The notes under the pieces: generated by a model
Seen by the model: the letters and a program-made list of their open reading frames with translations, nothing else
What the model was told of the DNA's origin: nothing
The model's database searches: none
Shown here: piece by piece, positions 1 to 35,938 of the stretch
How the letters are laid out: each line of letters starts with the position of its first letter
How positions within the stretch are numbered: position 1 is the stretch's first letter
DNA from: a virus
IMG/VR virus record: IMGVR_UViG_3300045988_106014
DNA length: 35,938 bases
Strand: one strand, 5' to 3'
Position numbers and translations under genes: made by a program

Positions 1-99
1 GTTTTTTTTTCGGCTTTGCCGTCGTCAGCGTGTTCAGATTCCACAGCGTAAGGATTTCGGGCAGAACTTGATAGATGCTGAACACCTCGAAGGAATCCA
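1..99. repeat. 99-bp terminal direct repeat, identical to 35840..35938 (circular-assembly overlap)
   Basis: Base-for-base identity of GTTTTTTTTTCGGCTTTGCCGTCGTCAGCG...GAAGGAATCCA at both window ends. The repeat cuts through an ORF. Confidence 0.95.
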
Positions 100-352: not shown

Positions 353-393
353 GTGTATGATCTCCTGTATACAGGGTGTTCCGGTGGAACACT

Positions 394-8443: not shown

Positions 8444-8517
8444 TGCACGCCCTCCCTTGCAAAAAAATATAGGGCCGCAAACCGCCGACATCCATCGACA
8501 GTTTACGGCCCCACTCG

Positions 8518-8546
8518 GCCCTTAGTGCAGACCATTTACTGCACCG
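8518..8546. repeat. 29-bp perfect repeat, copy 1 (GCCCTTAGTGCAGACCATTTACTGCACCG) containing hairpin GTGCAG-N8-CTGCAC
   Basis: Identical 29-mer at 35162..35190. Both copies lie just upstream (minus-strand sense) of a major late gene. Confidence 0.9.
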
Positions 8547-8730
8547 CGCTTTTTTTCACTTTTCGCCGCACTTCCAAAACGATGATTTCACCGTTCTTTC
8601 GGCGCTTGATCTCGGCTGTGTTGCCATGTTCCAGTATGGCGCGCACAGCTTCAATTACATCGTCCGGCAACGTCCGTTCACCTCCGCCCGGATTCCTGCA
8701 AAACAGGAACAAATCTGTTTCATCTGTCAA
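8536..8730 (-). CDS. hypothetical small protein (TTG start)
   Basis: 64-aa ORF with no in-frame ATG and a weak SD. Its last codons lie inside the 29-bp repeat. Confidence 0.4.
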   Translation of the reverse strand: MTDETDLFLFCRNPGGGERTLPDDVIEAVRAILEHGNTAEIKRRKNGEIIVLEVRRKVKKSAVQ

Positions 8731-8813: not shown

Positions 8814-9143
8814 CTAGGGGGGAGTAGCGCCGCTGGCGTTGGCCTTGTCCGCTGGCTGCGGCTGGCCGTTTTCGTCAAAGTAGTAAAGATTTCCACCGTC
8901 ATTTTCAATTTTGTTGTGGCAATCGTGGCAGACATACAGGAAGTTCGCCGGATTCAAAGCAATGTCCGGGTCTGTGATGTTCTCCGGCGTCAGCCATACT
9001 TTGTGATGGACGATGTAGCCGGGCGCATCTCTGCATATCTGACACAAGCCGCCGTCAATGTTGACGCGGGAAGCAACGAACGCCGCGCGGCACTTGCGCC
9101 ACTTTGTTGATTTGTAAAACGCTTTCGCAAATGCCTGTGCCAT
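8814..9143 (-). CDS. HNH endonuclease (terminase-associated type)
   Basis: CQICR...HHKVW...CHDCHNKIE HNH/zinc motif; located just upstream of terS. Confidence 0.85.
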   Translation of the reverse strand: MAQAFAKAFYKSTKWRKCRAAFVASRVNIDGGLCQICRDAPGYIVHHKVWLTPENITDPDIALNPANFLYVCHDCHNKIENDGGNLYYFDENGQPQPADKANASGATPP

Positions 9144-9220
9144 AGTTCACCGTTGGTGTTCCAGTAGAACACGACGCAATCCGCCGGGGATTGTGTAGTA
9201 ATAGAATCGTTACTGCTGTG

Positions 9221-9301
9221 TGATGTGTAGCGGAATCGAACCGCCGCGCTGTGCGCCGTACCTTGCACACCATATAATCCCGGATTGCCCGCCGGGCCGG
9301 G
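9221..9301 (-). ncRNA. tRNA-like structured element A (5' hairpin, 7-bp acceptor-like stem, canonical T-arm GGCGG-TTCGATT-CCGCT); not a canonical tRNA
   Basis: Minus-strand reading CCCGGCCCGGCGGGCAATCCGGGATTATATGGTGTGCAAGGTACGGCGCACAGCGCGGCGGTTCGATTCCGCTACACATCA, in a 270-bp gap. A paralogue lies at 19113..19207. Confidence 0.5.
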
Positions 9302-9412
9302 TGTCGCCATAGAATAGGAGGAAGAAAGGCCGTCAGTGTTCCCAACTGACAATTCCACTATAGCACACTTGAAATCGCTTATCTGGCCAACATTATGAAC
9401 AAACTGTAAACT

Positions 9413-9742
9413 TTAGTGCTTAGGGCTTGCATCTGGAATAAGGCCAGCTTCAAGGGCTAGTGTGTAGCAGTATTCGCGCTTGTAGCGGCGGAAAGTCTTT
9501 TCGCTTATATTCAAGTCGAACTGCCGCAGCAGAGTTGCGACGCTGGGTCTGCGCGGGTGCTTGACGTTCACCTTGATGGCAGCGGCCAGACGGTGCGCTT
9601 CGTCCTGCTGGCCCGCCGGGTATTTGTCGAAGATCATCTGTTCCGCAGTGCACAGGGCTGAAAGATACGGTTCCGTTTTGGCCCCCTGTACCAGCCCTGC
9701 GCAGACCTTGACGATACCGGGCGGCAGGGTGTAGCGGTTCAT
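9413..9742 (-). CDS. HTH protein, candidate late-gene activator (ArpU/RinA-like position and C-terminal HTH)
   Basis: 109 aa; C-terminus ...LLRQFDLNISEKTFRRYKREYCYTLALEAGL resembles sigma region 4/ArpU-type HTH; last gene before the packaging module. Confidence 0.4.
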   Translation of the reverse strand: MNRYTLPPGIVKVCAGLVQGAKTEPYLSALCTAEQMIFDKYPAGQQDEAHRLAAAIKVNVKHPRRPSVATLLRQFDLNISEKTFRRYKREYCYTLALEAGLIPDASPKH

Positions 9743-12876: not shown

Positions 12877-14319
12877 TCATACCTCCCATGCAAACGGCAG
12901 ACCAATTTTGCATCCTTCGCGCCGTTCTTCGAAGAAATAGCATCCTTTGCAGCACTCGCCGCTGCCGTGGGCTTCACAGTAGTTGCTAAGATCGCGGGCC
13001 GCGTCAATCACGTCATCGCTGGCGGTAGGCTCTGTGCTCTCGACGGTGGGCGATTCTTCCTGCACGATGGGCGCGGGGGTAATCTCCGAAGGTTCGGGCG
13101 CGGTATCCGCCGGGGGCGCTGGGGTTTGGGTTTCGGTGTCGGGGGTCTGCTTGGGGGTGCAGTGCGTGCAGGCCGTGGGGCAAGTGGCTTTTTCAAGGCA
13201 CAGTTGACAGCATCCAGCGCATCCGATCATTGCACCGTTTTTGACGTGGGATAAAATGCCATCGGCATTGTCGCACATACCGTCTACGGTATCTGTGCAG
13301 TTATCGTTAATGAATGTCGCATATCTTTCTGCACGGGTCACAGGTGCTTTTTTCGGCTCTGCGGTTGCTTTCTTCGGCATCGGTTCGGGGGTGATGCCTG
13401 CACCAGCACAAGCTTTTACGAACTGCGCCCATGTATACTGTACGTGCTGACCGTCCAAGTAGAAGCGGATGCCCTTTGCGCTGGTATCCGTGATACCGCC
13501 GCAGAGGTTCGTTCCGCCTGTCGGGTCTTTGGCGAGGTCTTGCAGCATAGCGGCACTGAAATATTCCAGCTTGCGTACCCATTTTCGATTTACAAATTCC
13601 TTTGCCATAGGCAGCGCCCAGTCGGGAAAAGTTTCGGGAACAGATTCTTTCTTCTTGCGTATGGCTTCCATCGTAGGCACAGGATAGGTCGCGGCGATTT
13701 CTTCCTGCTGGCGGTTCGGCAGACTGCTAAGTTCGTAGGCCACTTGCGTGCCGATGGTGCCCGCTTTGTAACGCTGCATAAGCGTGGGGCACAAGTGCTT
13801 GTAGATAGCTTGGTATTTACCCGCCTGCGCCGAAGAAATGCCCAGCGCCGCCGCAACGGCAGTGCGGGTCTTGCCCTCCACCTTGCCGCCGTTGGCTTTG
13901 AACTCTTTTGCGATTTCGGCGGTCTTGACGGTTTCCATCATGTTTTCATATTCGGTTTCTTTGCGAGTGGTACGGTTCATAAGGATAAGCCGTGCTTGGT
14001 CGGCCAGCGCTCCTAAGCTGGATGTGATCTTCACGTCAACTTCGGCCCAGCGTTCCGGGTCTTTGGCGTAGAGGGTCAGCAGGGCCAGACGGCGGCGGTG
14101 TCCGCCGGTCAGACGGTATTTGCCAGATTCATCCGCCGGGCGGACAACTAAGGGCTGTTCCAGCCCGAAAGCATCAATGGCAGCGGCCAGTTCTTCAATG
14201 CCGTCTGTTTCGTAGAAATTTTCGGGGTCTGGCAGGATGTCGGCCAGTTTGATGCGCGCAAAGTGATCTTGTTCCGGCTGGGTGCTGGCGGCGCTCAAAA
14301 CATCTTGAATCAGATTCAT
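12877..14319 (-). CDS. ParB/Srx-domain protein with HTH and long Cys-rich C-terminal extension
   Basis: Start at ATG 14319 (GGAGGG upstream). GGHRRR box, TRTAVAAALGISSAQAGKYQ HTH-like segment, Pro/Thr linker, CAGCCQLC...CPTACTHC. Confidence 0.8.
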   Translation of the reverse strand: MNLIQDVLSAASTQPEQDHFARIKLADILPDPENFYETDGIEELAAAIDAFGLEQPLVVRPADESGKYRLTGGHRRRLALLTLYAKDPERWAEVDVKITSSLGALADQARLILMNRTTRKETEYENMMETVKTAEIAKEFKANGGKVEGKTRTAVAAALGISSAQAGKYQAIYKHLCPTLMQRYKAGTIGTQVAYELSSLPNRQQEEIAATYPVPTMEAIRKKKESVPETFPDWALPMAKEFVNRKWVRKLEYFSAAMLQDLAKDPTGGTNLCGGITDTSAKGIRFYLDGQHVQYTWAQFVKACAGAGITPEPMPKKATAEPKKAPVTRAERYATFINDNCTDTVDGMCDNADGILSHVKNGAMIGCAGCCQLCLEKATCPTACTHCTPKQTPDTETQTPAPPADTAPEPSEITPAPIVQEESPTVESTEPTASDDVIDAARDLSNYCEAHGSGECCKGCYFFEERREGCKIGLPFAWEV

Positions 14320-14363
14320 GTTGGTTCCCTCCGGGTGTTCCAATGGAACACCAAAACAGCGAT

Positions 14364-15129: not shown

Positions 15130-15918
15130 TCAGAGCGGCAACAACTGTTCACAGCCCAGCACCTCCAACACTTCATCCGCCAGCACGCGGAAATCGCGGG
15201 CGGCATTGCTCCAACGGCTGTACAACGACAGCGGCTTGCCCGCGTCGTTTCCGTTTTCGACTTTCTGTGTGCTTTCGCGGATAACCGTGCCCAGTAAGTC
15301 AAGGTCGGTCACATCGGCGATTTTCTCTTTTTGATCGGGGCGAAAGCGGGTAATAAGGGCGTAGGCTTTCAGCTTTGGATTTTCCTGCTGGGCCGCTTCG
15401 ATTTGCTCCCATACCTCGGCAAGACCCTTGCGGGCGTTCTTGTCCAGCGTGATCGGCACGATGGCAAGGTCTGCTGCCATAAGGGCGTTGATGCTTGCCA
15501 TGTCGATGTCCGGGGCGCAGTCCACAACAACGAATTCAAGCGCACCTTCATTTTCCGCAAGGTAGCGGCGCAGACGCTTATCGCGCCCGCTGGACGTGTC
15601 CAGCAACAGGGAAATGTTCGACTTCATAAGGCGGTAGTCGCTGGGCAGAATACGAAGATGCGGGTACGGCTTTCCGTTGGCGTTCAGGGCCGGAAGTGTA
15701 GCGTGAAGGGCGCAGGCATCAGCGGCGGTCTTGGCCGTCAGCACATCGCCCAGACCGTGGGTAAAATCGTGGATGTTGTAAAACTCGGTGCTGTTGCCCT
15801 GCTTATCGGCATCAATCAGTAGTGTCTCGCCGATGTTGGAAAGTTCGTATGCAAGGTTTGTTGCGGTGGTGGTCTTGCCGACACCGCCCTTTAAATTCAA
15901 AATGACGATGGTTTTCAC
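15130..15918 (-). CDS. parA: ParA/Soj-family ATPase
   Basis: GTG start with AAGGAG 9 nt upstream; deviant Walker A LKGGVGKTTT; 262 aa. Confidence 0.9.
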   Translation of the reverse strand: MKTIVILNLKGGVGKTTTATNLAYELSNIGETLLIDADKQGNSTEFYNIHDFTHGLGDVLTAKTAADACALHATLPALNANGKPYPHLRILPSDYRLMKSNISLLLDTSSGRDKRLRRYLAENEGALEFVVVDCAPDIDMASINALMAADLAIVPITLDKNARKGLAEVWEQIEAAQQENPKLKAYALITRFRPDQKEKIADVTDLDLLGTVIRESTQKVENGNDAGKPLSLYSRWSNAARDFRVLADEVLEVLGCEQLLPL

Positions 15919-17296: not shown

Positions 17297-17754
17297 GGCT
17301 GGTATTGCGGTTTGTACCGCCCCTCCAAGTAATCCGTGATGACTGCGGCGGCAGCTTCCCAGCCCTTGCAGACTTCCACGGCATAACCGGCATCACGCAA
17401 GCGGGCAATCCACTGCTTCTGTGCAGCTGATACCGTACCGCCGCGCAGACGCTTCAATTCGATGTACAGGCCGTTGTACTTGGTGCGGATAATGGTATAC
17501 TGGCCGCGATCAACGGAATCTATCTTCTGAACGCCGACAGGCAGGAAGATGTCCGGCACGCCGGATTTCACACCCATTGCGCGGAAGCGGCCCGCTTCGG
17601 CTTTCCCACGCTTGCCGCCGTTTGGGATATGGTACATAAGGGAAAGTTCTGGATATTTGCCGCTTTGGGCATCGGCCCAGCGGAACAGGCACATTTGCTC
17701 TACATCTTCGGTAGGCGGCGGCATGGTGTATTTAATATCCGCCATTGAATGCAC
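17293..17754 (-). CDS. VRR-NUC domain nuclease
   Basis: PD-(D/E)xK elements VPDIFL and YIELK; GTVSAAQKQWI. Confidence 0.75.
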   Translation of the reverse strand: MHSMADIKYTMPPPTEDVEQMCLFRWADAQSGKYPELSLMYHIPNGGKRGKAEAGRFRAMGVKSGVPDIFLPVGVQKIDSVDRGQYTIIRTKYNGLYIELKRLRGGTVSAAQKQWIARLRDAGYAVEVCKGWEAAAAVITDYLEGRYKPQYQP

Positions 17755-18610
17755 GTCCTTTCTTTGTGGCAGGCGGCAGCGCGGCGTAATGATCGCGCGG
17801 GGCGCTGTCTGCCGGGGTTGTAATCAGTCTGTCGAACATAGGCCCGAAAAGCTGTGCAGGCGGCGGGAACGGTGCATCATTGTCTGCGGCCATACCGATG
17901 ACGGCTTTCACGTCCTTTTCTGTGTAGCCACGGTCAAACAAGCTGTACACCTGTTTTCTTGTCTGCTTATCGCCCTGCATATTGATACCAGTAAATGCTT
18001 GCAGCAAGGCCATAATACGGGTACAGCTTTCACGCCTGTTTTCAACAGACTTTTCAACAGCCGATTTCTGGGGAAGATTATGTTGGGGGTTTATTTCATT
18101 TTGTCTAATATAATCTTCTGTGCAGAAACTCGGTTTCTGTTGTTTGTTATTTGGGTTTTTGTATGCGGTTTCTCCGTTTTTGTGTACGAAAACTAAACCG
18201 GCGCGGGGTGTAACCTCTAAAAGCCAGTATTCAACAATAATCGGTATTTCGCCTGTACGCCGTGCGATGCCGTCCAGATAGCGGCTTTGTATCGCCCGAG
18301 AAGTTAATATTCCGTCCGTTGTAAATAAGGCTTTGTCGAAAAGTCCTAAAGACACGCACAGATCAACGATTGCCCGAACTTGGGTTGACTTCAACCCGCC
18401 GCCCAGCTTGCGCGCTGTCGATGCGGCGTTGTCATATCCCCAGCGGTAGAAATAACCATCGGTGGCGTAGGCTTTTTGGCACAGGGCAAAGTAGACATAA
18501 AAGCCCGCCGGGCCTTGTGCATCAATCAAGTTGTCAATAGAGGTGTCGTTTTCGAGAACATCCACATCCCACGTCGAATAGTTCAGATTCCGCTTCGGCG
18601 GTCTGCCCAT
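17732..18610 (-). CDS. replication organiser/initiator (DUF4373-like N-terminus, phage conserved C-terminus)
   Basis: 292 aa; WDVDVLENDTSIDNLIDAQGPAGFYVYFALCQKAY...; C-terminus FDRGYTEKDVKAVI. Confidence 0.65.
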   Translation of the reverse strand: MGRPPKRNLNYSTWDVDVLENDTSIDNLIDAQGPAGFYVYFALCQKAYATDGYFYRWGYDNAASTARKLGGGLKSTQVRAIVDLCVSLGLFDKALFTTDGILTSRAIQSRYLDGIARRTGEIPIIVEYWLLEVTPRAGLVFVHKNGETAYKNPNNKQQKPSFCTEDYIRQNEINPQHNLPQKSAVEKSVENRRESCTRIMALLQAFTGINMQGDKQTRKQVYSLFDRGYTEKDVKAVIGMAADNDAPFPPPAQLFGPMFDRLITTPADSAPRDHYAALPPATKKGRAFNGGY

Positions 18611-18991: not shown

Positions 18992-19112
18992 CTTTCAATC
19001 CTCCTGTTTGGTTTTTCTTCCTGCCTTTGCTTCATGCGGCGTTTGGCAGTTCATATAATGCCGGTCTTTCCCGGCTGTCAGCTAAGGAAAAGTATGGAGA
19101 GAAAAAGGGGCA

Positions 19113-19207
19113 GCGGGCTGTCAGAATCGAACTGACCGATGCTGTGAAATCTGCGCCAGCACCCGCACATGTACCCGGCAGGCGCGAACAGGTTTGCCCG
19201 CCGGGGG
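19113..19207 (-). ncRNA. tRNA-like structured element B (10-bp 5' hairpin, acceptor-like stem GCGGGT/GCCCGC, central hairpin TGCTG-N12-CAGCA, perfect T-arm GTCAG-TTCGATT-CTGAC)
   Basis: Minus-strand reading CCCCCGGCGGGCAAACCTGTTCGCGCCTGCCGGGTACATGTGCGGGTGCTGGCGCAGATTTCACAGCATCGGTCAGTTCGATTCTGACAGCCCGC, in a 375-bp gap. Shares CCCGGCGGGCAA and overall architecture with element A. Confidence 0.55.
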
Positions 19208-19365
19208 ATATGGGAAAATCCCACTTAGGTGTCCGGCACCTCTGCGCGGCAGATCAGCGGCCCGCGCAGTGCCCGTTCAGTCGTTCGTACCCCTTTCTGC
19301 AAGATGCGTCCGACTGCTGGTAGCGGTCAGTTCTGCGCCGATACCGCCAAACGCGCATAGAGTTG

Positions 19366-19830
19366 TTATTGATGACACATTTCTTCACACCGCTTATAGC
19401 CTATGTCGTTCCGCAGCATGTCCGCATTTGTGACGGCCTGCGAAAGAATGCAGATTCGTGTGCAACCAGAAATCTGAATTTTATGGGACGAAAAGCCGTT
19501 CTTATAGTGCAGCACCATCCAACTGCCGCCGCCAGCCGTGCAGTTATAACCTTCCGAAACAGAATATTCCAACTTCTCAAATTCCGGCATACTGATGCGC
19601 AGCATTTCCGAAATACTGCGCATGAAGTTTTTAGTCGGCGGGCATCCGTGGCGGATGGCGGTGACAGCTTCAACAGCTGACGGCGGCATGATCTTTGCGG
19701 CGCGGTCTGCCTGTTCGGCTATGATGGTGAACAAATCGGCAAGGGCCTGCGTCTTGACGGTAAGGGCATCTATTTTTTCGTTAGCTTCGTCAGTGTTCAG
19801 CGTGACGGCAATTTCGAAATCTTTATTCAT
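19366..19830 (-). CDS. hypothetical protein
   Basis: Start at ATG 19830, overlapping the stop of the upstream gene (ATGA): MNKDFEIAVTLNTDEANEK... Confidence 0.5.
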   Translation of the reverse strand: MNKDFEIAVTLNTDEANEKIDALTVKTQALADLFTIIAEQADRAAKIMPPSAVEAVTAIRHGCPPTKNFMRSISEMLRISMPEFEKLEYSVSEGYNCTAGGGSWMVLHYKNGFSSHKIQISGCTRICILSQAVTNADMLRNDIGYKRCEEMCHQ

Positions 19831-20090
19831 TCTGTTCCTTTCTTTGCACCCGCCAGGGAACGGCCACGGCGCTTGATGTTCTGATCGACAGTCTGCTGTG
19901 CCTTGGCGGCGCTGTACGCGCGGCATCCCTTGGGATTGAACGCGCCTGTATAGCCGCGTGCCAACTCTCTATATAGAGTAGCAAGGGAAACGTCCACCGC
20001 CGCCGCGATGGTCGGCAGTGGCGTTCCAGCGTCGTATAAAGTCGCAATAAGCTGTCGATCTTTTTGGGTGATTACCTTGTACTTCCGCAT
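19827..20090 (-). CDS. standalone IS30-type N-terminal HTH protein (regulator candidate)
   Basis: 87 aa. ITQKDRQLIATLYDAGTPLPTIAAAVDVSLATLYRELARG aligns position-for-position with LTYTDRLRIEKWLKDGYTYRQIADKLRVHISTIYREIKKG of the adjacent transposase. Confidence 0.6.
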   Translation of the reverse strand: MRKYKVITQKDRQLIATLYDAGTPLPTIAAAVDVSLATLYRELARGYTGAFNPKGCRAYSAAKAQQTVDQNIKRRGRSLAGAKKGTE

Positions 20091-20111: not shown

Positions 20112-20153
20112 ATATAAAAATGATGCGAAAGAGCGTTTAATCTCTTTCGCATC
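20112..20153 (-). terminator. rho-independent terminator downstream of the transposase gene
   Basis: Perfect 12-bp stem GATGCGAAAGAG/CTCTTTCGCATC (20122-20133 / 20142-20153) with an 8-nt loop, followed on the minus strand by ATTTTTATATA. Confidence 0.7.
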
Positions 20154-20154
20154 T

Positions 20155-21296
20155 ATTGTACCAGTCGCCGACCGCGGAGTCAATAGGTTTACGCAAAAAA
20201 GATGAAATTTAATTTTGTTGCATAGCGGAAAGGCATTCTTTGAAAGCCATGTCGGCGGTTTTGTAGCCTAGGATTTTGCGGGGGAAGCTGTTCATCCATG
20301 ATTCTACTTGTCGGACGGTGTAGGATGTTACTTTGGCAAAGTTCGTCCCTTTCGGAAACTGGCGGCGAATCATGCGGTTAAGATTTTCATTTGACCCGCG
20401 TTCCCAACTGCTGTACGGATGGCAATAGTAAATATGCGTGCGATTGCCCTTGCAGGCGATTGATTTTAGCATTCCTTCAAGGTCAGAAAATTCAACGCCG
20501 TTGTCTACGGTGATAGATTTAAAGATTTCGCGGAAAGCCGCACCGAAGCGCCGTTCAAGCCGATTCAAGGCCCGGACGGTGCTTTTTGCTGTCCTGTCCT
20601 GCATCAAGACTATAATTTCCTTGCGTGTCTTACGCTCGGTCAGCACAAGCAGGCAGCGGCGCGTGCTGTTTTTTGATGAATAGACGGTGTCCATTTCCCA
20701 GTGTCCGAACTCGTCGCGGGTGTCGATACTTTCGGGGCGGTTGTCGATGATCTCGCCAACAGGCGGGCGGGATGCCTTGCGTACCTTGTGATGCTTTTTG
20801 CCACGGCGGGCTTTTTCTGGCAAATCCTCGTTTGTCAGATTCAAAAACACGCCTTTTTCAATGTAGCTGTAAATCGTTTCGGCGCATACGGATGTTTTAA
20901 ACGTGCGTCCTTCCAGCGCGGCGCAGGCCAGCGCGGCAGCGGGCGAACATTTCTTAGTCAAGATCGTATTTTCTATGTAGGCGGCAAGCTCGTGATCTTT
21001 ACCGATTTTCAATTCTGCACCCTTGGCGCGAAGATTGTCTTGATAGTACTTTTCGGCAATGTCGGGGCTGTATGCGGCCTTATATTCGTATGTCCTGTAG
21101 TCTAAACGCTGGTACTCGCCCTTTTTGATTTCGCGGTAGATGGTGCTGATATGCACGCGCAGTTTGTCCGCAATCTGACGGTAGGTATAGCCGTCTTTCA
21201 GCCATTTTTCAATACGCAGACGATCAGTGTAGGTCAGATGTTTATACGCGCGTGCCATGGTTCAAGCCTCCCGTATGTGCCCACCGGGGCAGTATA
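20155..21296 (-). mobile_element. IS30-family element (boundaries approximate; inverted repeats not resolved)
   Basis: Single DDE transposase ORF with lower GC than its flanks (spot counts 40-48% against mid-50s). Bounded by the stop of ORF 21297..21455 and the terminator/HTH gene. Confidence 0.4.
20209..21258 (-). CDS. IS30-family DDE transposase
   Basis: 349 aa; HTH ...STIYREIKKGEY; catalytic region HWEMDTV ... TVDNGVEF ... ERGSNENLNRMIRR. Confidence 0.9.
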   Translation of the reverse strand: MARAYKHLTYTDRLRIEKWLKDGYTYRQIADKLRVHISTIYREIKKGEYQRLDYRTYEYKAAYSPDIAEKYYQDNLRAKGAELKIGKDHELAAYIENTILTKKCSPAAALACAALEGRTFKTSVCAETIYSYIEKGVFLNLTNEDLPEKARRGKKHHKVRKASRPPVGEIIDNRPESIDTRDEFGHWEMDTVYSSKNSTRRCLLVLTERKTRKEIIVLMQDRTAKSTVRALNRLERRFGAAFREIFKSITVDNGVEFSDLEGMLKSIACKGNRTHIYYCHPYSSWERGSNENLNRMIRRQFPKGTNFAKVTSYTVRQVESWMNSFPRKILGYKTADMAFKECLSAMQQN

Positions 21297-23864: not shown

Positions 23865-24197
23865 TTACACCCCCATCATAACGGCCAGTGTGTCATAGAT
23901 TGCGTTGATTTGTTCCTGCACAGTGGGCAGGGGTTCATCCTCTGCCCATGCGGCGGCATACGTCCACCAATCGTCAAACTTGGCGTTGATGGTATCGGCG
24001 GTTTCACCGGAACGGTCTGCACCCAACTTGCCGATGGCAGTTTCACACTGCCACAGTTTAGCATCAGGCGTTTCATCACCGGTATCAGTTTCAACCTGTT
24101 TGGCGTTTTTACGCAAATACAGCCATGTCGTGCCATCGGGCAAGGGTTCCAGCGTAACGGCAGCAGGTTTGTTGTCGAGGGATTCCGTAATAATCAT
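23865..24197 (-). CDS. XkdW-position hypothetical protein (acidic, 110 aa)
   Basis: Start at ATG 24197, overlapping the RT stop (ATGA): MIITESLDNKPAAVTLEPL... Confidence 0.5.
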   Translation of the reverse strand: MIITESLDNKPAAVTLEPLPDGTTWLYLRKNAKQVETDTGDETPDAKLWQCETAIGKLGADRSGETADTINAKFDDWWTYAAAWAEDEPLPTVQEQINAIYDTLAVMMGV

Positions 24198-25426
24198 ACG
24201 GCAAGGCTCCTTTCTTTGATCGCGGCGGCGCGCACCGCCCATTTTGCAGATTTGAATAGTTTTTGCTGGTTCAACGCTTCGGCAGCAGCGCGGGATTTTG
24301 TGCCCTTGAAATATCCGTTGTAGCTTATCAGGCGGTACGAACGGTAAAGCGGGATGAAGTGGCTGCGCTTCAAGTCTGCCCCTGCGCGCATATACTGCCG
24401 CCGTGCTCGCTTAAAAATACCCGGGCGAACGGTAGTATAGGTGCGGTGCATGACATACCCTGCCATATCCAGACCGGGGCAACCTTTGGCCGCGCCTTTC
24501 AGGTGTCGGCGGCGGTGTTCCTCTGCCGGGGATAGAAAGTCAACGCGCACCCAACTGTCCTTGATTGTCAGGTGCAGCGTGTCTTTGACCCATTTTGTAA
24601 TCTTACGGGCCGCGCTCTGGATGTCAGCCCATCGTCGGCCCATCAACACAAGATCGTCCATATAGCTGCCACTGCGCACCACAAGCGGCACGGACACACC
24701 GCGCCGGGTCTTGACATAGCCAAGGATGCGGACAAGAATATAACTTGCGACAAGATTGAACATCCATGCTTCCAGATAGCCGCCGATCAGCAAGCCGCCG
24801 TTCGGTGACATTGCCAGCAGGCAGCGCACAACGGCCAGCAGCCAAGCGGCGAGCGGAATTTCATATTGCAGAATCGCAAGCACAAGTTCCTGTTTCGTAT
24901 GCTCGTATGCGCCTTTGACATCCAGTTTTAAGGCGTGCTGGATGCCAAGACTTTTACGGCGCAGCCATCGTTCAACTTGCCGCTTTAGTGCCGTCTGGCC
25001 TTTCTTCGGGATGCTGGCGAACTGATACGGCAACAGTCTTGCGCGCAGCAGTGGCCGCAGGCCAAGATAGGCCAGATGCCCGAAACATTGATGCAGCGGG
25101 CAGCAGTCAGACAACTGCCGCAGTTTCATACTGATACCATCAATGCGCGGGAAAGTATGCACCGGGTCAAGGTCAAGATCGTTTGCACTGCCGTCCAGCG
25201 GATCATCAATGCGCTGTTCCATTTCAAGGGCAATGCCGTGAACTACTTCAAGGCGCGGCCCCATATCCGCCACGCGGGCGGCGGTCTGTAATTCTGCACG
25301 GGTAACACCTCCGTACTTTTCCGCCATAGCCAGATAATTACGACGGAACCATTTATCGTTAAAGGCTTCTAAGGCCGCTTGCTCACACAGTTCATGTGTA
25401 AGCGGCATATATCTGTTCTTTTTCAA
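24194..25426 (-). CDS. reverse transcriptase of a diversity-generating retroelement
   Basis: 410 aa; YMDD at 24653..24664; LDVKGAYEH (motif 3); LIGGYLEAWMFN (motif 4); lies directly downstream of TR. Confidence 0.9.
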   Translation of the reverse strand: MKKNRYMPLTHELCEQAALEAFNDKWFRRNYLAMAEKYGGVTRAELQTAARVADMGPRLEVVHGIALEMEQRIDDPLDGSANDLDLDPVHTFPRIDGISMKLRQLSDCCPLHQCFGHLAYLGLRPLLRARLLPYQFASIPKKGQTALKRQVERWLRRKSLGIQHALKLDVKGAYEHTKQELVLAILQYEIPLAAWLLAVVRCLLAMSPNGGLLIGGYLEAWMFNLVASYILVRILGYVKTRRGVSVPLVVRSGSYMDDLVLMGRRWADIQSAARKITKWVKDTLHLTIKDSWVRVDFLSPAEEHRRRHLKGAAKGCPGLDMAGYVMHRTYTTVRPGIFKRARRQYMRAGADLKRSHFIPLYRSYRLISYNGYFKGTKSRAAAEALNQQKLFKSAKWAVRAAAIKERSLAV

Positions 25427-25676
25427 ACCCTCAAAGCCTTTCGTTCTTGCTGATGTTCAACGACGTTCGGTTGCTGTGGCCCTTGCAGCAGGGCCGCAGT
25501 ATCTACTACTAGCCGCCACGCAGGCCCATGGCCTGCGGCCATACACACCACCCCGCGCGTATCTCTCGCATCGGCGCAGCTATATGGTGTCGGTATCACA
25601 TGATCTTAGCGGTCAAAGCCGCAGGCGCGGTACAACGCTTTTGCCCGCATTGTGCGGACTTTATTTTCATCAGCAT

Positions 25677-25819
25677 GGCGGGGCGAACCGTTCCAATTCG
25701 AGTTCGCGGGCGAATTGTTGCCATTCGCGCACGGGATGCCACACGCGCCATTGTCGTTAAGATTGCCAGAACGCCAAGGCGCGTACAGGCCCGCACTACC
25801 GGGGGAATTGAAAGCCGCC
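25677..25819 (-). repeat. DGR template repeat (TR), 143 bp
   Basis: Aligns with 25940..26082 at an offset of 263. The 12 mismatches are all T in TR on the plus strand, which is A on the transcribed strand. Confidence 0.9.
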
Positions 25820-25895
25820 GAACGCCGCTGTACCACTCCATAAGGAATATTGCTTACAGGATTATGTAGGGGCCTGCTGCCCCTCTGGGTGGCGC

Positions 25896-27629
25896 TTACG
25901 CGCTCACCCATTCACCCCGCTTTTTACCGCTTCCTGCAAGGCGGGGCGAACCGTACCAATACGAGATCGCGGGCGAATAGTTGCCATGCGCGCACGGGAG
26001 GCCACACGCGCCATGGCCGTAAAGATGGCCAGAACGCCAAGGCGCGTACAGGCCCGCACTACCGGGGGAAGCGAAAGCCGCCCGCACATAGGTGGAATCA
26101 CTGCCGCCAAATTTCACAGGGTTCATGGATTCAGCGGCAAGTTTGTTCAGTGCGCGGATATAGTTCCAACTCCATTTGTTGGCGTTGGGCAGATCGAACG
26201 AACTGGTCTTTTCATAGTTCGCCGTGATGCTGCCCGCCTGTTTCTCGGAATCGCGGCAGGAATAGACATCATAGTGCCAGTGATCGTCAACAAGACTTGC
26301 CTGCCACAGCGGGTCGAGTTGTTCGGTATAGTTGCCGATCTGCATTTCAACGCCTGCCACGCGGTAGGGGTATTTACCATTCGTCAGGTTGCCCATGCAG
26401 CCATCACTATGACCGGGCAGACATTCCGTCGTGCCGGACGGCCAAGGCATGGTAGACAGCAGCATGGTAGTGGTCGGGGAAATGGCATCCGTCAAATCCA
26501 GATTCACAATGCCGTATTCCACGCCGCCGATAACTTCGGATGTGACGCTGACGACCTTTGCCCAGTTGAAAATATTGTGGTTGTAGGACTGGTTTCTATC
26601 GGTGGTGGGGCTGGTTTCGCCGCTGCGCTCACCCAGACACACGCCGGAACCGGGCAGGATGTTTGCGGCCTGCGCCGTAGTCAGCACAACGCGCTTGACG
26701 TTCGCTTCGGCCACGGCGGGGGTATACTGGTAATTGTAGGACGTGCAGCCCTCCAACTTGCCGCTGTTGCTCTTTGTCCAGTGGCGCAGCCGCCATGCGG
26801 ACAAGGCAAACTGCTGATCACAGTCGTTCCACAGTCCTTCGTATGTGGTAGTTTTACGTGCCAGAGGGATGCCAGCGTTGGCACTGACCCAGACCATGGG
26901 CGGCTTGCCGATGCCGCTTGTCATTCCGCCCTTCGTGTTCAGACCGCCGCAGTAGGCGGGATGCCATGTCATAACGCGCATCGTGCCATCGGGGGCCACG
27001 TCACCAGCCATCGGCACATAGCCGTTGCCGGGATAGGTGCGCCAACTGTTATACATATAGCTGGCATCTTCCCATTCTTTCAGGCACAGCGCCAAAGAGA
27101 AGCAGTAGACGGGGGCGGTTTCGCCCGTGATGTCAAACTCGCGTTCACCTTCCAGCGCAAGGATGTTCATAGTGCCATCGGCAAGGCTCAAAGCATTACC
27201 GCGAATGTACCACGTCATCAAATCTTCTTCGGCCCAGTCGGTTACATCGGTGGTTGTATCGGTCACAAGCGGTGCGGCGGAACGGCCATCCGCCAGATCG
27301 TCCAGCGGCGTACCCGTGTAGTCAGAAGATACCGTGTCCAGATAGAAGCGCAGCGTGTAGGCCAGTTTGTACCCGGCTTTTGCCATCATGGCAAAGAAGC
27401 GGCACAGGCGGTCATACTTCGATGCACCGCCGGTGGCGCTCAACGGCCACCAAAGCCAAAATACTTTTGTAGTGTTCGTGCCGTCCAGCAGTGCGCCAAA
27501 ACTCGCATCAATGAATTCGGCGCTTGCGTTGCCTGCCGCAATCGCGGCCAGCAATTCCGTCTGCTGCGACATGAGATCACGCATTTCTTTGCCTGTGTCA
27601 TCGGTAAAAGGAAAACATACAGGGTTCAT
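25896..27629 (-). CDS. DGR target / variable protein, probable distal receptor-binding protein (C-type-lectin-like VR at the C-terminus)
   Basis: 577 aa. The C-terminus ...SPGSAGLYAPWRSGHLYGHGACGLPCAHGNYSPAISYWYGSPRL is encoded by VR. Follows the tail fibre genes. Confidence 0.85.
   Translation of the reverse strand: MNPVCFPFTDDTGKEMRDLMSQQTELLAAIAAGNASAEFIDASFGALLDGTNTTKVFWLWWPLSATGGASKYDRLCRFFAMMAKAGYKLAYTLRFYLDTVSSDYTGTPLDDLADGRSAAPLVTDTTTDVTDWAEEDLMTWYIRGNALSLADGTMNILALEGEREFDITGETAPVYCFSLALCLKEWEDASYMYNSWRTYPGNGYVPMAGDVAPDGTMRVMTWHPAYCGGLNTKGGMTSGIGKPPMVWVSANAGIPLARKTTTYEGLWNDCDQQFALSAWRLRHWTKSNSGKLEGCTSYNYQYTPAVAEANVKRVVLTTAQAANILPGSGVCLGERSGETSPTTDRNQSYNHNIFNWAKVVSVTSEVIGGVEYGIVNLDLTDAISPTTTMLLSTMPWPSGTTECLPGHSDGCMGNLTNGKYPYRVAGVEMQIGNYTEQLDPLWQASLVDDHWHYDVYSCRDSEKQAGSITANYEKTSSFDLPNANKWSWNYIRALNKLAAESMNPVKFGGSDSTYVRAAFASPGSAGLYAPWRSGHLYGHGACGLPCAHGNYSPAISYWYGSPRLAGSGKKRGEWVSA
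25940..26082 (-). repeat. DGR variable repeat (VR), 143 bp, inside the 3' end of ORF 25896..27629
   Basis: See TR. The invariant GC-rich 3' end CGGTTCGCCCCGCC (coding strand, 25940-25953) is IMH-like. Confidence 0.9.
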
Positions 27630-32060: not shown

Positions 32061-35000
32061 TCACCCCTTTATTTTGGAAATCAGATCGCGGGTTGCAACA
32101 CGGGTCGCCCGTGCCGTCTCTGCGGGGGATACCGGGTCGGGGCTTGTCACATTGATGGTCTGGTTGTAGTTGATGGTTTTCGTGGTGGGCACGGGGGCCG
32201 CGCCTGCGCCTGCAAGCTGCGGGCCGTTTACCATGATCGCCATTCCTGCGGTGATGCCGTCAAGGGTCTTTTGCAAGTACGGCATGGCGCTGCGCATTGC
32301 ATCAGCGTAACCGTGGATGAAGTCCACAGGCCACTTTTCGTAATCGCGCAGCGGCCCTTCATCGGGACGGGAAAAATGCAGCAGACTGCGGATGTCATCG
32401 GCAAGGCCGCGCACATTGTCCACAACAGCGCTTGCCGCATTGGCGATGCCCTTTGCAAATCCGTTGATGAAATCCCTGCCCCATCCAAGCGCCTTTTCGG
32501 GCAGTTCCTTGATGAAGTCCACAGCCTTGTTGATGCAGCCTGTAGCAGCACTGTAGACTGTGCCGGCCATGCCCTTAATTGCATCGGCCATGCGCTGGAA
32601 CATCGTTCGGCCCAGCGTTGCCAACGTGGACGGCAGAGCGCGGAAGAAATCAAGAATGCCGTTCCAGATGTTCTGTACGGTGGTGCTGATTGTCTGGCAC
32701 AGGCTGGAAACGGTGGCAAGGAATCCATTCCACGCGGTGGTGACAGCGTTGCCGATGGCGGTCATGGTGGACGACAAGAACGTCTTGATTGCGTTCCAAA
32801 TTGCCTGTACGGCGGTGCTGATCGCATTGCACACGGTGCTGATAATCGTCAGCAGGCCGTTCCATTCTGCCTGTAAAAAGCTGACAATGGCCGACATGAC
32901 ACCGCTGATAAATGTCTGGATGCCGTTCCAGATACCGGAAATTGCTTCCGACAGTGCGGACAGGATGTTGGAAATATCACTTTTCAGCGCGTCAAAATCG
33001 CCGGTGACTAAATCGCAGATGATAAGGACAACGCCCAGCACAGCGGTCTTGATGGCGTCCCAGATGCTTGTAAAAATCTGCTGGATGCCCTCAAAAGCCG
33101 TTGTCACACCGTCGCTGACGATGTCCCACGCATTTTGAAGCGTTGTTGCAATGACGGTGACGACGGTTTCAACAATGGCTTTGATGCCGTCCCAAGCCGT
33201 GGTAAAGATTGTCTGTATTGTTGTCAAGGCAGTCTGCACGGCGGTGGTGATTCCCGTCCATGCGGCCTGCAATGTGCTGGCGATGGCAGATACGACGGTG
33301 GAAACAACGGTCTGAATCGCATTCCATGCAGTAGAAAACGCCGTTTGCAAAACAGTAAACAAATTCTGCACGGTGGTGATCGCGGTAGAAACAGCGGATT
33401 TTATAGCTTCCCACAACCCAATCCAGAAATTGCGGAACGCTTCGGATTTGTTCCAGAGGGTGACAAACCCGGCAACCAGTGCCACAATGCCCGCCACGAC
33501 CAGTACAAACGGGTGTTTGGCCAACAGGCCAAACAGCCCCGAAACAGCGCCCTTGACCTTGGCAACGGCGGAAACAATTTCGGGTGCGGCTTTCAGCGCG
33601 CCGCCGATGCTGGATGTCAGATTGCCAATAAATATCAGTACAGGCCCCAGCGCGGCAATTAGGCCGCCCACGGTCAGGATGATTTGCTGTGTGGATTCAT
33701 CCATACCGCTGAATTTGTCCACGACACCCGTCACGCCTTTGATGATTTGCGTGATGCTTGGCAGCAGCTTGTCCATCAAGTCGATCAGGGCGTTTTTGGC
33801 TTCGTTCAGCGCTTTGGCAAATTTCTGGTTGGTGGTGTCGGTGACTTTCTGGAACGCTTCATCTGTTGCCTTGCCGCAATCCTGCATCTGGGTCAGAATT
33901 TCGTTGTAGTCCGCACCGTCGTTACGGGCAAGCACCATTGCGGCAGAACCGGCTTCGACACTGCCGAACATGTCTTTCAGGGTCTTGCCGTCTGCTTCGG
34001 CGGCATCGGACAGCATGTTCAGGATGTCGGATGTGGAATCGCCCTCGGCTTTCAGATCGGCAAAGCCTTTGCCCGTCAGTTCGCGCAGGGTGGTGTCGGT
34101 GATGCTGCCGGACTTTGTAAGTTCGTTCAGCATGGATTTTAAGTAAGTGCCGGATTCTGCGGTGGCAATGCCGTTCTTGGTAAGCAGGGCGTAGGCAGAC
34201 GAAAGTTCGGTCATGTCGTAGTTGGCCGCAGCGGCCACGGGAATGACCTTGCCCATGCTGGACGCAAGTTCGTCAACGGTGGTTTTGCCCAAATTCTGCG
34301 TGGTAATCAGCAAATCGCTGATCTTGGTTGCATCCTCTGCTTTCAGCTGATAGCCATTGATGGCTGTTGTCATAACATCAACGGCTTTTGCGGCATCGGT
34401 AAAGCCGCCCTTTGCCAATTTGACCGCCGATGTGGTGAAATCAATAGCATCGGCAGCGCCCACACCGGCAGAAATAGCGCTGTACACAGCTTCGGAAAAA
34501 TCGTTGACGGAAACGCCCGTTTCATTGCTGGCGGTCATGATGTCGGCCTTGTACGCTTCAAAGTCGGCAGACGATGCGTCCAACAGGGTGCTGACCTTGG
34601 CGAAAGCATCTTCAAAGTCTGCGGCCAGCTTCAAGCCCACACCGCCAACACCTGCCACGGCGGCAGAGACAGGGGCAACGGCCTTGCCGACGGCAGATAT
34701 ACCGTCGCCCACTTTCTGCATCTTATCGCCCACAGCAGCCAGTTTTTGGGCGGCTGTGTTCGATTTATTGTAAGTGTCGGTCAGATCATCAATGCGTTGC
34801 TTTGTCTGTTCGATTTCGGCGCACAACTTGCGGTATTCCGCTTGTTCTTCTTCCGTGCCGTTCTGCATCGTCTTACTGCACTGTTCTTTTGCTTGGGTAA
34901 GTGCTGCAAGTTTGTCTTTGCTTGCGGCAATTTCCTTTGTCAAAAGTTCCTGCTTTTGGGTAAGCAGAACGGTATTGCTGGGGTCGAGTTTCAGTAGGCG

Positions 35001-35126
35001 GTTCAACTTGCCGATTTCGGTAGCCGAACTGTTTACTTTCCTGTTCAGTTCATCCAGCGCCGTGTTGAAATTTTTGGTATCGCCGCCAATCTCTACGGTG
35101 ATACCTTTAATGTTATAGGCAGGCAA
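32061..35126 (-). CDS. tail tape measure protein
   Basis: 1021 aa; TTG start with GGAAAGGGGG upstream; TP901-type core; hydrophobic central segment; Trp-periodic repeats; LHFSRPDEGPLRDYEKW near the C-terminus. Confidence 0.9.
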   Translation of the reverse strand: MPAYNIKGITVEIGGDTKNFNTALDELNRKVNSSATEIGKLNRLLKLDPSNTVLLTQKQELLTKEIAASKDKLAALTQAKEQCSKTMQNGTEEEQAEYRKLCAEIEQTKQRIDDLTDTYNKSNTAAQKLAAVGDKMQKVGDGISAVGKAVAPVSAAVAGVGGVGLKLAADFEDAFAKVSTLLDASSADFEAYKADIMTASNETGVSVNDFSEAVYSAISAGVGAADAIDFTTSAVKLAKGGFTDAAKAVDVMTTAINGYQLKAEDATKISDLLITTQNLGKTTVDELASSMGKVIPVAAAANYDMTELSSAYALLTKNGIATAESGTYLKSMLNELTKSGSITDTTLRELTGKGFADLKAEGDSTSDILNMLSDAAEADGKTLKDMFGSVEAGSAAMVLARNDGADYNEILTQMQDCGKATDEAFQKVTDTTNQKFAKALNEAKNALIDLMDKLLPSITQIIKGVTGVVDKFSGMDESTQQIILTVGGLIAALGPVLIFIGNLTSSIGGALKAAPEIVSAVAKVKGAVSGLFGLLAKHPFVLVVAGIVALVAGFVTLWNKSEAFRNFWIGLWEAIKSAVSTAITTVQNLFTVLQTAFSTAWNAIQTVVSTVVSAIASTLQAAWTGITTAVQTALTTIQTIFTTAWDGIKAIVETVVTVIATTLQNAWDIVSDGVTTAFEGIQQIFTSIWDAIKTAVLGVVLIICDLVTGDFDALKSDISNILSALSEAISGIWNGIQTFISGVMSAIVSFLQAEWNGLLTIISTVCNAISTAVQAIWNAIKTFLSSTMTAIGNAVTTAWNGFLATVSSLCQTISTTVQNIWNGILDFFRALPSTLATLGRTMFQRMADAIKGMAGTVYSAATGCINKAVDFIKELPEKALGWGRDFINGFAKGIANAASAVVDNVRGLADDIRSLLHFSRPDEGPLRDYEKWPVDFIHGYADAMRSAMPYLQKTLDGITAGMAIMVNGPQLAGAGAAPVPTTKTINYNQTINVTSPDPVSPAETARATRVATRDLISKIKG
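32649..33425 (-). repeat. about 10 tandem 22-aa Trp-anchored repeats within the tape measure (residues ~568-826)
   Basis: WNAIQ, WTGIT, WDGIK, WDIVS, WDAIK ... WNGIQ, WNGLL, WNAIK, WNGFL, WNGIL, each 22 residues apart. Confidence 0.8.
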
Positions 35127-35161
35127 ACGTCGCCGCCCCCTTTCCGTAGCGGCTCCATTTA

Positions 35162-35190
35162 GCCCTTAGTGCAGACCATTTACTGCACCG
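35162..35190. repeat. 29-bp perfect repeat, copy 2 (identical to 8518..8546)
   Basis: GCCCTTAGTGCAGACCATTTACTGCACCG, 36 nt upstream (minus sense) of the tape measure start. Confidence 0.9.
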
Positions 35191-35196
35191 TTAATA

Positions 35197-35649: not shown

Positions 35650-35938
35650 TCACCCAAAGAATTTGTCGATGTCTGCCTGCGTCGCTTTCAGCGGCCACTT
35701 GTAGTCATCGTTTTCCCGTTCAATCGCCATGTCGTTTACCATGCCGACGGTCAGCAGATCAAGATCGCGCAGAGCAATGCCCATCTGCACGCAGCGCAGT
35801 AAAAACAGCGGCGTTGTCATTTCGCGGGTAGTTACCCTTGTTTTTTTTTCGGCTTTGCCGTCGTCAGCGTGTTCAGATTCCACAGCGTAAGGATTTCGGG
35901 CAGAACTTGATAGATGCTGAACACCTCGAAGGAATCCA
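35650..35938 (-). CDS. 3' end of gpG (stop 35832..35834) plus the -1-frame gpT extension (stop 35650..35652), giving the G-T fusion chaperone
   Basis: G frame ...ACG GCA AAG CCG AAA AAA AAA CAA GGG TAA. The -1 frame continues ...KKTRVTTREMTTPLFLLRCVQMG...DIDKFFG. Confidence 0.7.
   Translation of the reverse strand, partial: GFLRGVQHLSSSARNPYAVESEHADDGKAEKKTRVTTREMTTPLFLLRCVQMGIALRDLDLLTVGMVNDMAIERENDDYKWPLKATQADIDKFFG
35840..35938. repeat. 99-bp terminal direct repeat (identical to 1..99)
   Basis: See 1..99. Confidence 0.95.
35841..35849 (-). promoter_or_regulatory. -1 programmed ribosomal frameshift slippery run (A AAA AAA within A9; duplicate copy at 2..10)
   Basis: A9 lies 2 codons before the gpG stop. 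The overlapping ORF is in the -1 frame, as in the conserved G/GT arrangement of long-tailed phages. Confidence 0.65.

Follow-up and report, generated by a model that had tools for sequence, protein, structure and literature searches.

Putative tRNA-like RNA modules without an anticodon in two operon leaders of a phage with the IScream gene layout

The gap preceding an HNH endonuclease gene in the viral sequence IMGVR_UViG_3300045988_106014 of IMG/VR (35,938 nt, analysed over its full length and hereafter called the window) contains, on the minus strand, a segment with the acceptor/T-arm half of a tRNA (element A, within positions 9221-9301), and a second segment of this kind (element B) is situated at 19205..19112. 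We consider it very likely, with a probability of roughly 0.85, that A and B belong to one family of RNA modules which resemble tRNAs, lack an anticodon and reside in long structured leaders of phage operons. In each of them a six-pair acceptor helix and an additional layer (7:66) stack on a T stem of 5 bp, which carries a T-loop of 7 nt; the centre is variable, and an invariant U lies directly 5' of the helix. Element A lies ahead of the HNH and terminase genes for packaging and element B ahead of the replication genes, both at module boundaries in conserved leaders.

Folds of the two elements and their relatives

A first-pass annotation of this DNA had listed a T arm, an acceptor-like stem and several hairpins in the gap, with an extended -10 further upstream, and all of these were found on the minus strand where it had placed them. 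The parts of leader A are as follows.

9365..9357, minus strand: extended -10 TGCTATAGT, predicted transcript start near 9353-9350
9350..9332, minus strand: 5'-terminal hairpin GTCAGT-TGGGAAC-ACTGAC, then a C/U-rich tract to 9312; terminator-like site at 9352..9330
9296..9279, minus strand: P1 hairpin CCCGG-CGGGCAAT-CCGGG, whose 5' strand and loop hold box1 (9296..9289) of the 8-mer CCCGGCGG
9272, minus strand: U(-1), column 1 of the alignment, T in 14/14 distinct sequences of types A-H (defined below)
9271..9221, minus strand: tRNA-like core
9271..9265, minus strand: acceptor 5' strand of the core
9264..9257, minus strand: joining strand
9256..9246, minus strand: middle hairpin GCGC-ACA-GCGC
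9245..9229, minus strand: T arm, with GGCGG (9245..9241), loop TTCGATT (9240..9234) and CCGCT (9233..9229); outer pair G.U
9228..9222, minus strand: acceptor 3' strand
9221, minus strand: discriminator A
9188..9181, minus strand: box2, the second CCCGGCGG copy, ~33 nt 3' of the core and last of its array
9156..9172, minus strand: palindrome or hairpin GTGTTC-TACTG-GAACAC, just upstream of the HNH ribosome-binding site

The minimum-free-energy fold reproduces the core, and a covariance model derived solely from types A and C matches it with 115 bits. The conserved acceptor helix comprises six Watson-Crick or G.U pairs (9271..9266 with 9227..9222), followed by the variable 7:66 layer C9265/A9228, and this register gives tRNA geometry, i.e. 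7 + 5 stacked layers with no bulge. The stem had initially been described as a 7-bp helix; six of its pairs are conserved, and the outermost one, U9272-A9221, is not. Judging from the alignment, U9272 would be better read as an invariant N(-1) and A9221 as the discriminator. An alternative pairing of the centre, GTGTGC-N8-GCGCAC, was rejected, as it cannot form in the relatives of type C.

A T arm of this kind had been said to be very unlikely by chance, and the counts bear this out. TTCGATT enclosed by a 5-bp stem occurs twice in the window as against 0.057 expected, none of 300 dinucleotide shuffles reached two occurrences, and for a T arm with a 6-bp acceptor helix in register the values are 2 found and 0.01 expected. 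The bare 9-mer GTTCGATTC, sought with at most one mismatch, is not enriched in the window (9 found, 8.45 expected).

Element A is located ~80 nt into a conserved leader of roughly 210 nt that runs into the HNH gene with no terminator behind the element. The suggestion of a separately initiated short RNA could not be established for this reason, and a discrete small RNA from element A would need processing. The first strong terminator on the presumed HNH transcript (8514..8469; 20-bp stem and U run) comes after the HNH gene and a gut-2 RNA and before the small terminase gene. The box2 region is 89% conserved between types A and C, and both box2 and the GTGTTC..GAACAC palindrome are present in the leaders of types E-H. 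This palindrome, found three times in the window as the perfect palindrome GTGTTCC-N3-GGAACAC (376..392, 9156..9172 and 14335..14351; 0.03 expected), may be an operator or a translational hairpin. Each copy lies ~10-30 nt upstream of a start codon, namely those of a gene near 309, the HNH gene and the ParB-like gene.

Element B was signalled in the first-pass annotation by a second T arm at 19120..19136. It is a genuine second copy: the A/C model finds it with 24.5 bits (E 1e-4) and finds nothing else in the window.

18992..19365, minus strand: structured leader around element B, 374 nt, upstream of a 118-aa open reading frame (ORF) and the replication initiator gene
19205..19112, minus strand: element B with its P1 hairpin; core 19166..19112
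19205..19174, minus strand: P1-B hairpin, 10-bp stem, includes the 8-mer
19167, minus strand: U(-1)
19166..19161 with 19118..19113, minus strand: acceptor, GCGGGU with GCCCGC
19160..19141, minus strand: D-arm-like hairpin GCUG-N12-CAGC, then AUCG
19136..19120, minus strand: T arm GTCAG-TTCGATT-CTGAC
19112, minus strand: discriminator U

The 374-nt leader folds better than 100/100 shuffles (z = -3.1), is conserved behind at least three different upstream genes and marks a mosaic boundary. Four more of its helices change on both sides between the window and the related L170, i.e. CAGUCG/CGACUG to CAGCCG/CGGCUG, CUGCGCGG/CCGCGCAG to CCGUGCGG/CCGCACGG, UGGGA/UCCCA to GGGGC/GCCCC, and CUGCC/GGCAG to CCGCC/GGCGG. 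Because of these compensatory changes, we regard the tRNA-like core of B as one domain of a larger structured leader. The proteins encoded upstream of A and of B, compared as possible paralogous partners, share no similarity with each other.

An exact-pattern scan of viral contigs returned 31 loci, which were sorted into types A, B and C. Scanning genome contigs gave 107 matches, almost all of them chance occurrences or real tRNAs of GC-rich genomes, and only one (L161, type D) was retained. The loci of homologues of the 109-aa protein encoded upstream of element A provided types E-H. A metagenome pattern scan added, among the matches listed, only variants of A, B and C, and four further scans of viral contigs yielded no new types.

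Type A: as at element A, HNH/packaging leader; acceptor GGUGUG/CACAUC; centre of 8-10 nt and a 4-bp hairpin
Type B: as at element B (19112..19166); acceptor GCGGGU or GCGGGC with GCCCGC; centre with the D-arm-like hairpin and AUCG
Type C: upstream of an HNH gene 82-84% identical to that of the window; acceptor GGUACA/UGUACC; centre as in type A
Type D: a Clostridia metagenome-assembled genome, in an unrelated Clostridia prophage with cro-like helix-turn-helix genes on one side and the following early gene on the other; acceptor GGGCGA/UCGCCU
Types E and F: loci of 109-aa protein homologues, 53-63% identical; acceptor GGCGCG/CGCGCC; centre of 8-9 nt and a 5-6-bp hairpin with a loop of 8-16 nt
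Type G: locus and centre as in types E and F
Type H: locus as in types E-G; acceptor ACAGCC/GGCUGU; centre with two small hairpins

The A/C model also detects type E (44.9 bits) and type F (36.5 bits). Covariance searches gave exactly two tRNA-like copies per genome; a weak third match in L170 (5300-5380) was discarded, being only a P1-like hairpin inside a gene. The order of parts is constant at the A-family loci: 109-aa gene, extended -10, a hairpin with the loop UUGGG, a C/U-rich tract (the latter two in all of these leaders), P1, core, box2, GTGTTC..GAACAC hairpin, ribosome-binding site and HNH gene. The extended -10 noticed in the first pass is kept at the same place (TGTTATAGT in type C, TGATATAAT in E, TGCTATAAT in F, GTATAAT in G and H), even where the upstream protein is only 53-63% identical.

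Covariation was assessed in helix-only alignments of 14 distinct sequences of the eight types, so that the length-variable middle could not cause misalignment. Standard pairs are formed in 91.7% of the acceptor and T-stem cells, and 10 of the 12 pairs change on both sides, a number reached by 4 of 500 column shuffles; when the 3' partners are slid by 1-3 columns, pairing falls to 33-48%. Every sequence has the T-arm motif, a 5-bp stem closed by G53-C61 and a 7-nt loop with U54 and A58, and these four features, U(-1), G53-C61, U54 and A58, never vary, while G(+1) is found in 13/14. The T stem (GGCGG/CCGCU, GUCAG/CUGAC, GCCGG/CCGGC and GUUGG/CCAGC across types) is paired in 94% of cells, with three pairs changing on both sides. 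Its loop equals the consensus GGTTCGATTCC in types A-D and drifts at positions 55/56 (UUCGAUU, UUCAAUU, UUUGAUU, UGCGAUA and UGUGAAC). The 7:66 layer (C.A, G.A, G.G, U.G, U-A or C-G; a standard pair in 5/14), the discriminator and everything between acceptor and T arm are variable. Thermodynamic folding of isolated segments reproduces the junction in 6/7 types, and in 6/7 the segments are more stable in the sense than in the antisense orientation, with the G.U pairs on the coding strand.

In the comparison of A and C phages, identity amounts to 76-78% in the flanking genes, 100% in P1 and 93% in the hairpin with the T arm; the acceptor strands reach only 50% and 38%, and all of their changes are compensatory. 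As the acceptor strands have diverged in a compensatory manner while P1 and the T arm are conserved above the flanking genes, we read this pattern as that of an RNA structure under selection rather than of a pseudogene in decay. The lack of conserved and covarying stems in homologous phages was what the first-pass annotation had itself named as counting against its proposal, and such stems are present; its description of a tRNA-like element with a true T arm and acceptor stem, devoid of a D arm and anticodon loop, agrees with both fold and covariation.

At the type H locus (L332, 2938..3040) the 8-mer overlaps the 3' strands of the T stem and the acceptor (GAAC-CCGGC-G-GGCUGU). A sequence link between the 8-mer box and the T arm is thus possible. 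In types D, F and G, CCGGCG occurs at the same place of the T arm.

Comparison with known RNAs

The first-pass annotation had expected tRNA finders and Rfam to give negative or low-scoring results, which was the case. ARAGORN reported no tRNA or tmRNA gene in the window, L007, L012, L048, L161 and L170, and Rfam at gathering thresholds identified only two gut-2 RNAs in the whole window, both elsewhere. A permissive Rfam search aligned element A with tRNA-Sec at a sub-threshold 17.8 bits (E 0.55), skipping the D and anticodon arms; element B and type D scored 19.7 and 18.5 bits, as against a gathering score of 47, and no tRNA-clan match at E<=1 was obtained over the whole window. Only 20-40 nt with one short hairpin separate acceptor and T arm, so there is no cloverleaf. 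A real tRNA or tmRNA is ruled out by these ARAGORN and Rfam results.

The modules share with canonical and phage tRNAs (RF00005) the 7-layer acceptor on a 5-bp T stem and the 7-nt T-loop with G53-C61, U54 and A58, and types A-D even have the consensus loop. They differ in lacking a D arm, an anticodon stem-loop and an encoded CCA, in the usually mismatched 7:66 layer, and in their location inside an mRNA leader. A tRNA origin of the modules is probable.

The tRNA-like domains of tmRNA and of the bacterial Y RNA YrlA (PMC4201824) show the same layout, i.e. an acceptor helix, a single-stranded D-loop substitute, a helix replacing the anticodon arm, and a T arm. The phage modules lack a tag reading frame, pseudoknots and the long Ro-binding stem. 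A tmRNA was rejected also because pair 3:70 is U-A, G-C or C-G depending on type, so that G3.U70 is not kept. A YrlA or bacterial Y RNA was rejected, as no Rfam match was found at E<=10 in the leader or E<=1 in the window and no long helix extends from the junction. A 3' tRNA-like structure of the plant-virus type does not fit an element that is internal, ~78 nt upstream of a start codon, and followed by CAC, GCC or CGA instead of CCA. The gut-2 family (RF02990) was excluded by position, its matches being at 8501..8548 and 35145..35192. That the 5' box might be the 3' end of a host 5S rRNA or a general pre-tRNA leader was likewise dismissed: real tRNAs follow CCCGGCGGGCAA in L190 and L171, no rRNA is found there, and the resemblance is ascribed to chance. 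The L190 site looks like a normal promoter region of a tRNA gene.

Well-known cases of tRNA mimicry come from RNA viruses, tmRNA, Y RNAs and mammalian long noncoding RNAs (lncRNAs). In the mascRNA/MEN-beta system of MALAT1 and NEAT1, the 5' side of a tRNA-like fold is cut by RNase P, a cut that generates the 3' end of the RNA upstream; an adjacent structure guards this end, and RNase Z cuts on the 3' side of the fold. This is the closest analogue of the mechanism proposed below, as in both cases the tRNA-like fold lies inside a longer transcript. However, these are eukaryotic nuclear lncRNAs with a full cloverleaf, a reduced anticodon loop and a triple-helix protector in place of a GC hairpin, and their processing has been demonstrated, whereas that of the phage modules is predicted. 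In mitochondrial tRNA punctuation, tRNAs between coding units (some of them armless) are the cut sites of RNase P and RNase Z; functional tRNAs are used there, whereas the phage modules have no anticodon and only two occur per 36-kb genome. The P4 CI RNA and the C4 antisense RNA of P1/P7 (Rfam C4) are phage regulatory RNAs cut from an operon leader by host RNase P. Unlike the modules, C4 RNAs pair with repeated target sequences and have no T arm, and neither C4 nor c4-a1b1 of Rfam matches in the window.

No published description of the element was found in the literature, and a catalogue from 2023, which lists 10,006 candidate RNAs of phages, 206 of them expressed (PMC10690425), may include it. 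A conserved anticodon-less tRNA-like module in operon leaders of double-stranded DNA phages is absent from Rfam.

A putative processing signal and its competitors

Bacterial RNase P, which prefers U(-1), needs as its minimal substrate no more than an acceptor/T-arm stack preceded by a single-stranded leader, and the same minihelix is read by RNase Z and the CCA-adding enzyme. The phage elements have this geometry: six paired layers, the 7:66 layer and five T-stem pairs follow each other with no intervening nucleotide, and U(-1) and G(+1) occur in 14/14 and 13/14 sequences. In types A, B, C, E, F, G and H a GC hairpin ends about 7-10 nt before the predicted cut. As the acceptor/T-arm half is kept and the decoding half is gone, as the copies lie at module boundaries and as the GC hairpin precedes the cut, we tentatively propose, at somewhat below even odds, that the module is a cleavage signal of host RNase P, and possibly also of RNase Z, that would separate transcript modules.

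According to this proposal, host RNase P would cut the presumed transcript on the 3' side of U(-1), which would place the cut at 9272/9271 for A and at 19167/19166 for B. The upstream RNA would end a few nucleotides after the stable P1 hairpin, which could guard its 3' end, and the downstream mRNA would begin with a compact structured domain, or just behind it after RNase Z action. Early regulators would in this way be split from replication genes, and the 109-aa gene or the promoter leader from packaging genes, so the phage might adjust stability and dosage separately for each of the adjoining transcript modules, in a phage version of tRNA punctuation.

Several observations weigh against this interpretation or the breadth of the family. 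No CCA is encoded, the discriminator (A, U or G) is not conserved and the 7:66 layer is mismatched in 9/14 sequences. As neither T-loop positions 55/56 nor a D-loop GG is conserved in types E-H, the canonical tRNA elbow, used in full-length RNase P recognition, is not maintained. The sequences represent only ~8 independent lineages, several of them closely related, so that shared descent accounts for part of the covariation counts. The search pattern that yielded type D required the 8-mer and the T-loop, for which reason the 8-mer beside it is present by construction, and the A/C model missed this type at E<0.05. Finally, a simple cleavage signal would not account for the 8-mer of P1, for box2 or for the GTGTTC palindrome.

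The main rival is a cis-acting RNA for processive antitermination, in the manner of HK022 put or Bacillus EAR, in which the folded leader would bind the polymerase and enable it to read through downstream terminators. HK022 has two put RNAs, each located in a leader that follows a promoter and precedes a long operon. The modules are alike in copy number and placement, each being situated after a promoter region and before a long operon; moreover, transcripts from the 9357 promoter must pass the terminator 8514..8469 to reach the packaging genes, and the entire leader is conserved, not the tRNA-like part alone. Nevertheless, put RNAs are two plain stem-loops devoid of tRNA features, with no sequence or model similarity to the modules, and neither a resemblance to put/EAR nor an Rfam match was found. 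The terminator-like hairpins beside both promoters lie upstream of the elements and thus cannot be targets of antitermination, and the tRNA-specific invariants (U54, A58, G53-C61, 12 stacked layers and U(-1)) would be left without explanation. We hold this mechanism to be unlikely.

Rather unlikely, too, is that the element serves as a tRNA mimic, a binding platform or decoy which, in cis or after release, titrates or recruits a protein or protects phage RNA; a modification enzyme, the CCA-adding enzyme, EF-Tu or a defence toxin targeting the acceptor end could be the partner. That exactly the acceptor/T-arm half is kept and the anticodon half lost would suit such a role. Type B carries G1-C72, C2-G71, G3-C70 and U73, the bacterial glycine acceptor identity set. 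Bacterial Y RNAs (PMC4201824) offer a precedent for tRNA-like domains as protein platforms. However, acceptor identity differs among the types, and no one synthetase or identity-specific binder would suit them all. Nor do the two copies share a linked gene that could encode a partner, as the upstream proteins of A and B are unrelated, and the element is embedded in mRNA leaders instead of forming a stand-alone gene with its own terminator.

It is improbable that the conservation concerns DNA, i.e. a single-strand signal for initiation or recombination, or a region bound by protein, with hairpins in single-stranded DNA or conserved binding sites. Element B does lie just upstream of the replication module, the 8-mer of P1 belongs to a strand-specific array that also crosses coding sequence, the GTGTTC..GAACAC palindrome is operator-like, and compensatory changes by themselves cannot separate RNA from single-stranded DNA. 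However, several helices use G.U pairs, which are C.A mismatches on the opposite strand, the orientation always matches transcription, and the T-loop invariants are features of an RNA fold. An attP site or remnant of tRNA integration was rejected, as both A and B are uninterrupted and lie ~9.3 kb from each other within a prophage integrated in a 1.14-Mb contig (L245), and the prophage ends at the IS30 transposase gene, ~1 kb from B.

The textbook T-loop of types A-D and the tRNA-Gly-like acceptor of type B make a tRNA ancestry likely, but decaying phage or host tRNA pseudogenes, deprived of their middle and functionless today, are very improbable, as the helices are kept by compensatory change where flanking proteins are only 53-78% identical, the element is better conserved than neighbouring genes, the architecture persists with drifted T-loops (UUUGAUU, UGCGAUA, UGUGAAC) that retain U54 and A58, and the position in the leader is always the same.

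The 8-mer array and the layout of the phage genome

The 8-mer CCCGGCGG held by P1 is the most frequent 8-mer of the minus strand, with 12 copies there and none on the plus strand. The minus-strand copies begin at the following positions.

19205, 18512, 16349, 14966, 14140, 13114, 12728, 11918, 10878, 9620, 9296 and 9188, minus strand: first bases of CCCGGCGG

They all fall between 19205 (P1 of B) and 9188 (box2), i.e. in the ~10-kb early region bounded by the tRNA-like elements. Nine are intragenic. Eight of these share a reading frame (xxC-CCG-GCG-Gxx, read as Pro-Ala-Asp/Gly/Glu) and mostly fall in peptide stretches resembling linkers, and one is in an Arg-Arg frame of a small unlisted ORF. 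Shuffling of synonymous codons in the early genes gave 0.66 +/- 0.76 copies as against 7 observed, a number reached in 0/300 shuffles; in the late genes 0.72 are expected and none is observed. These counts point to strong selection of the 8-mer at the nucleotide level. A one-strand array ending at box2 is found in all related loci, including the distant types E, F and H, where 9-10 copies lie in ~3.5 kb, with none downstream and none on the other strand.

Possible roles of the 8-mer are a signal of the sense-strand RNA or non-template strand of the early operon, a site for the ParB-like or the HNH protein, or a nicking site. A Chi-like signal would be in keeping with its orientation, as the 3' side faces the presumed cos end. 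A Chi-like sequence of the host is not supported: a 30-kb host flank, a small sample, holds one copy and the 7-mer is at its random expectation. It might be speculated that the tRNA mimics, punctuating transcripts and bracketing the 10-kb early region, and the strand-specific 8-mer, with one of its 12 copies in the hairpin beside each mimic, constitute a previously undescribed regional signalling system of IScream phages, a combination that we regard as doubtful.

The window represents a phage genome of 35,839 bp that was assembled as a circle: positions 1..99 are identical to 35840..35938, i.e. the assembly is circular or terminally redundant with 99-nt ends. Essentially all of its genes are carried by the minus strand, in the order replication module, 109-aa protein gene, HNH gene, small and large terminase genes, head/tail genes, diversity-generating retroelement, lysis genes and IS30-family transposase gene.

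17732..18610: replication initiator, in the replication module
15130..15918: ParA, early region
12877..14343: ParB-like protein with a ParB-N domain, early region
9413..9742, minus strand: 109-aa protein, always immediately upstream of the A-type leader (synteny in L304-L309, L332 and L335)
8814..9143, minus strand: HNH endonuclease, first gene after leader A (PHROG HNH families, E 3e-14)
20209..21258: full IS30-family transposase (NCBIfam transpos_IS30, E 5e-69), at one prophage end
19827..20090: truncated N-terminal helix-turn-helix fragment of an IS30 transposase, 87 aa, at the other prophage end

The ParB-like gene is kept beside the 109-aa gene in distant relatives. The 109-aa protein had been labelled a late-regulator candidate, and this label found no support, as the protein has no match in Pfam, PHROG or NCBIfam and no fold match in the PDB (best E 0.28); its five-helix model is confident (pLDDT 86, pTM 0.80).

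The two gut-2 RNAs are on the minus strand (54.7 and 53.5 bits). That at 8501..8548 lies between the HNH and small terminase genes, and its 3' hairpin merges into the intrinsic terminator 8514..8469; the other (35145..35192) is just upstream of a 1021-aa gene (32061..35126). The retroelement (24194..27629) includes a 410-aa reverse-transcriptase-like ORF with a YMDD motif (24194..25426) and a pair of 147-nt repeats, 91% identical, namely a template candidate (25673..25819) and a variable copy (25936..26082) that lies in the 3' end of a 577-aa ORF (25896..27629). A link between the tRNA-like elements and the reverse transcriptase was rejected, since the retroelement to which this enzyme belongs lies 5-15 kb away and possesses a 147-nt template and variable repeats of its own.

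The transposase gene adjoins four different sets of host genes in four large contigs (L310-L313). By its gene layout the phage is assigned to the IScream class, an abundant group of IS30-bound gut prophages of Clostridia described in 2025, of which ~1,780 candidates were reported in gut viromes (PMC12823448). A host in culture is Blautia hansenii ATCC 27552 (PMC12823448). The word tRNA does not occur in the paper defining this class (0 occurrences; PMC12823448). In the window the prophage ends join at ...TTGACTCCGCG|GTCGGCGACTGGTACAAT... (20122..20209, minus strand). The junction carries a promoter with the -35 TTGACT contributed by the right end, after the IS30 transposase gene, and the TG-extended -10 TACAAT by the left end, and for this reason the predicted early promoter would exist only in the circular form, in the way that the junction promoters of IS30 minicircles are formed by joined ends. 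A 12-bp hairpin with a U run follows directly (20153..20122).

If host RNase P or RNase Z cut at the tRNA-like elements, these phages would borrow the tRNA-processing machinery of their hosts to punctuate and tune polycistronic transcripts, and the module would provide a compact, portable RNA processing signal for Clostridia. The 8-mer array linked to it, the promoter apparently restricted to the circular form and the palindrome with its three copies suggest that the IScream phages have an unstudied regulatory layout of unusual richness.

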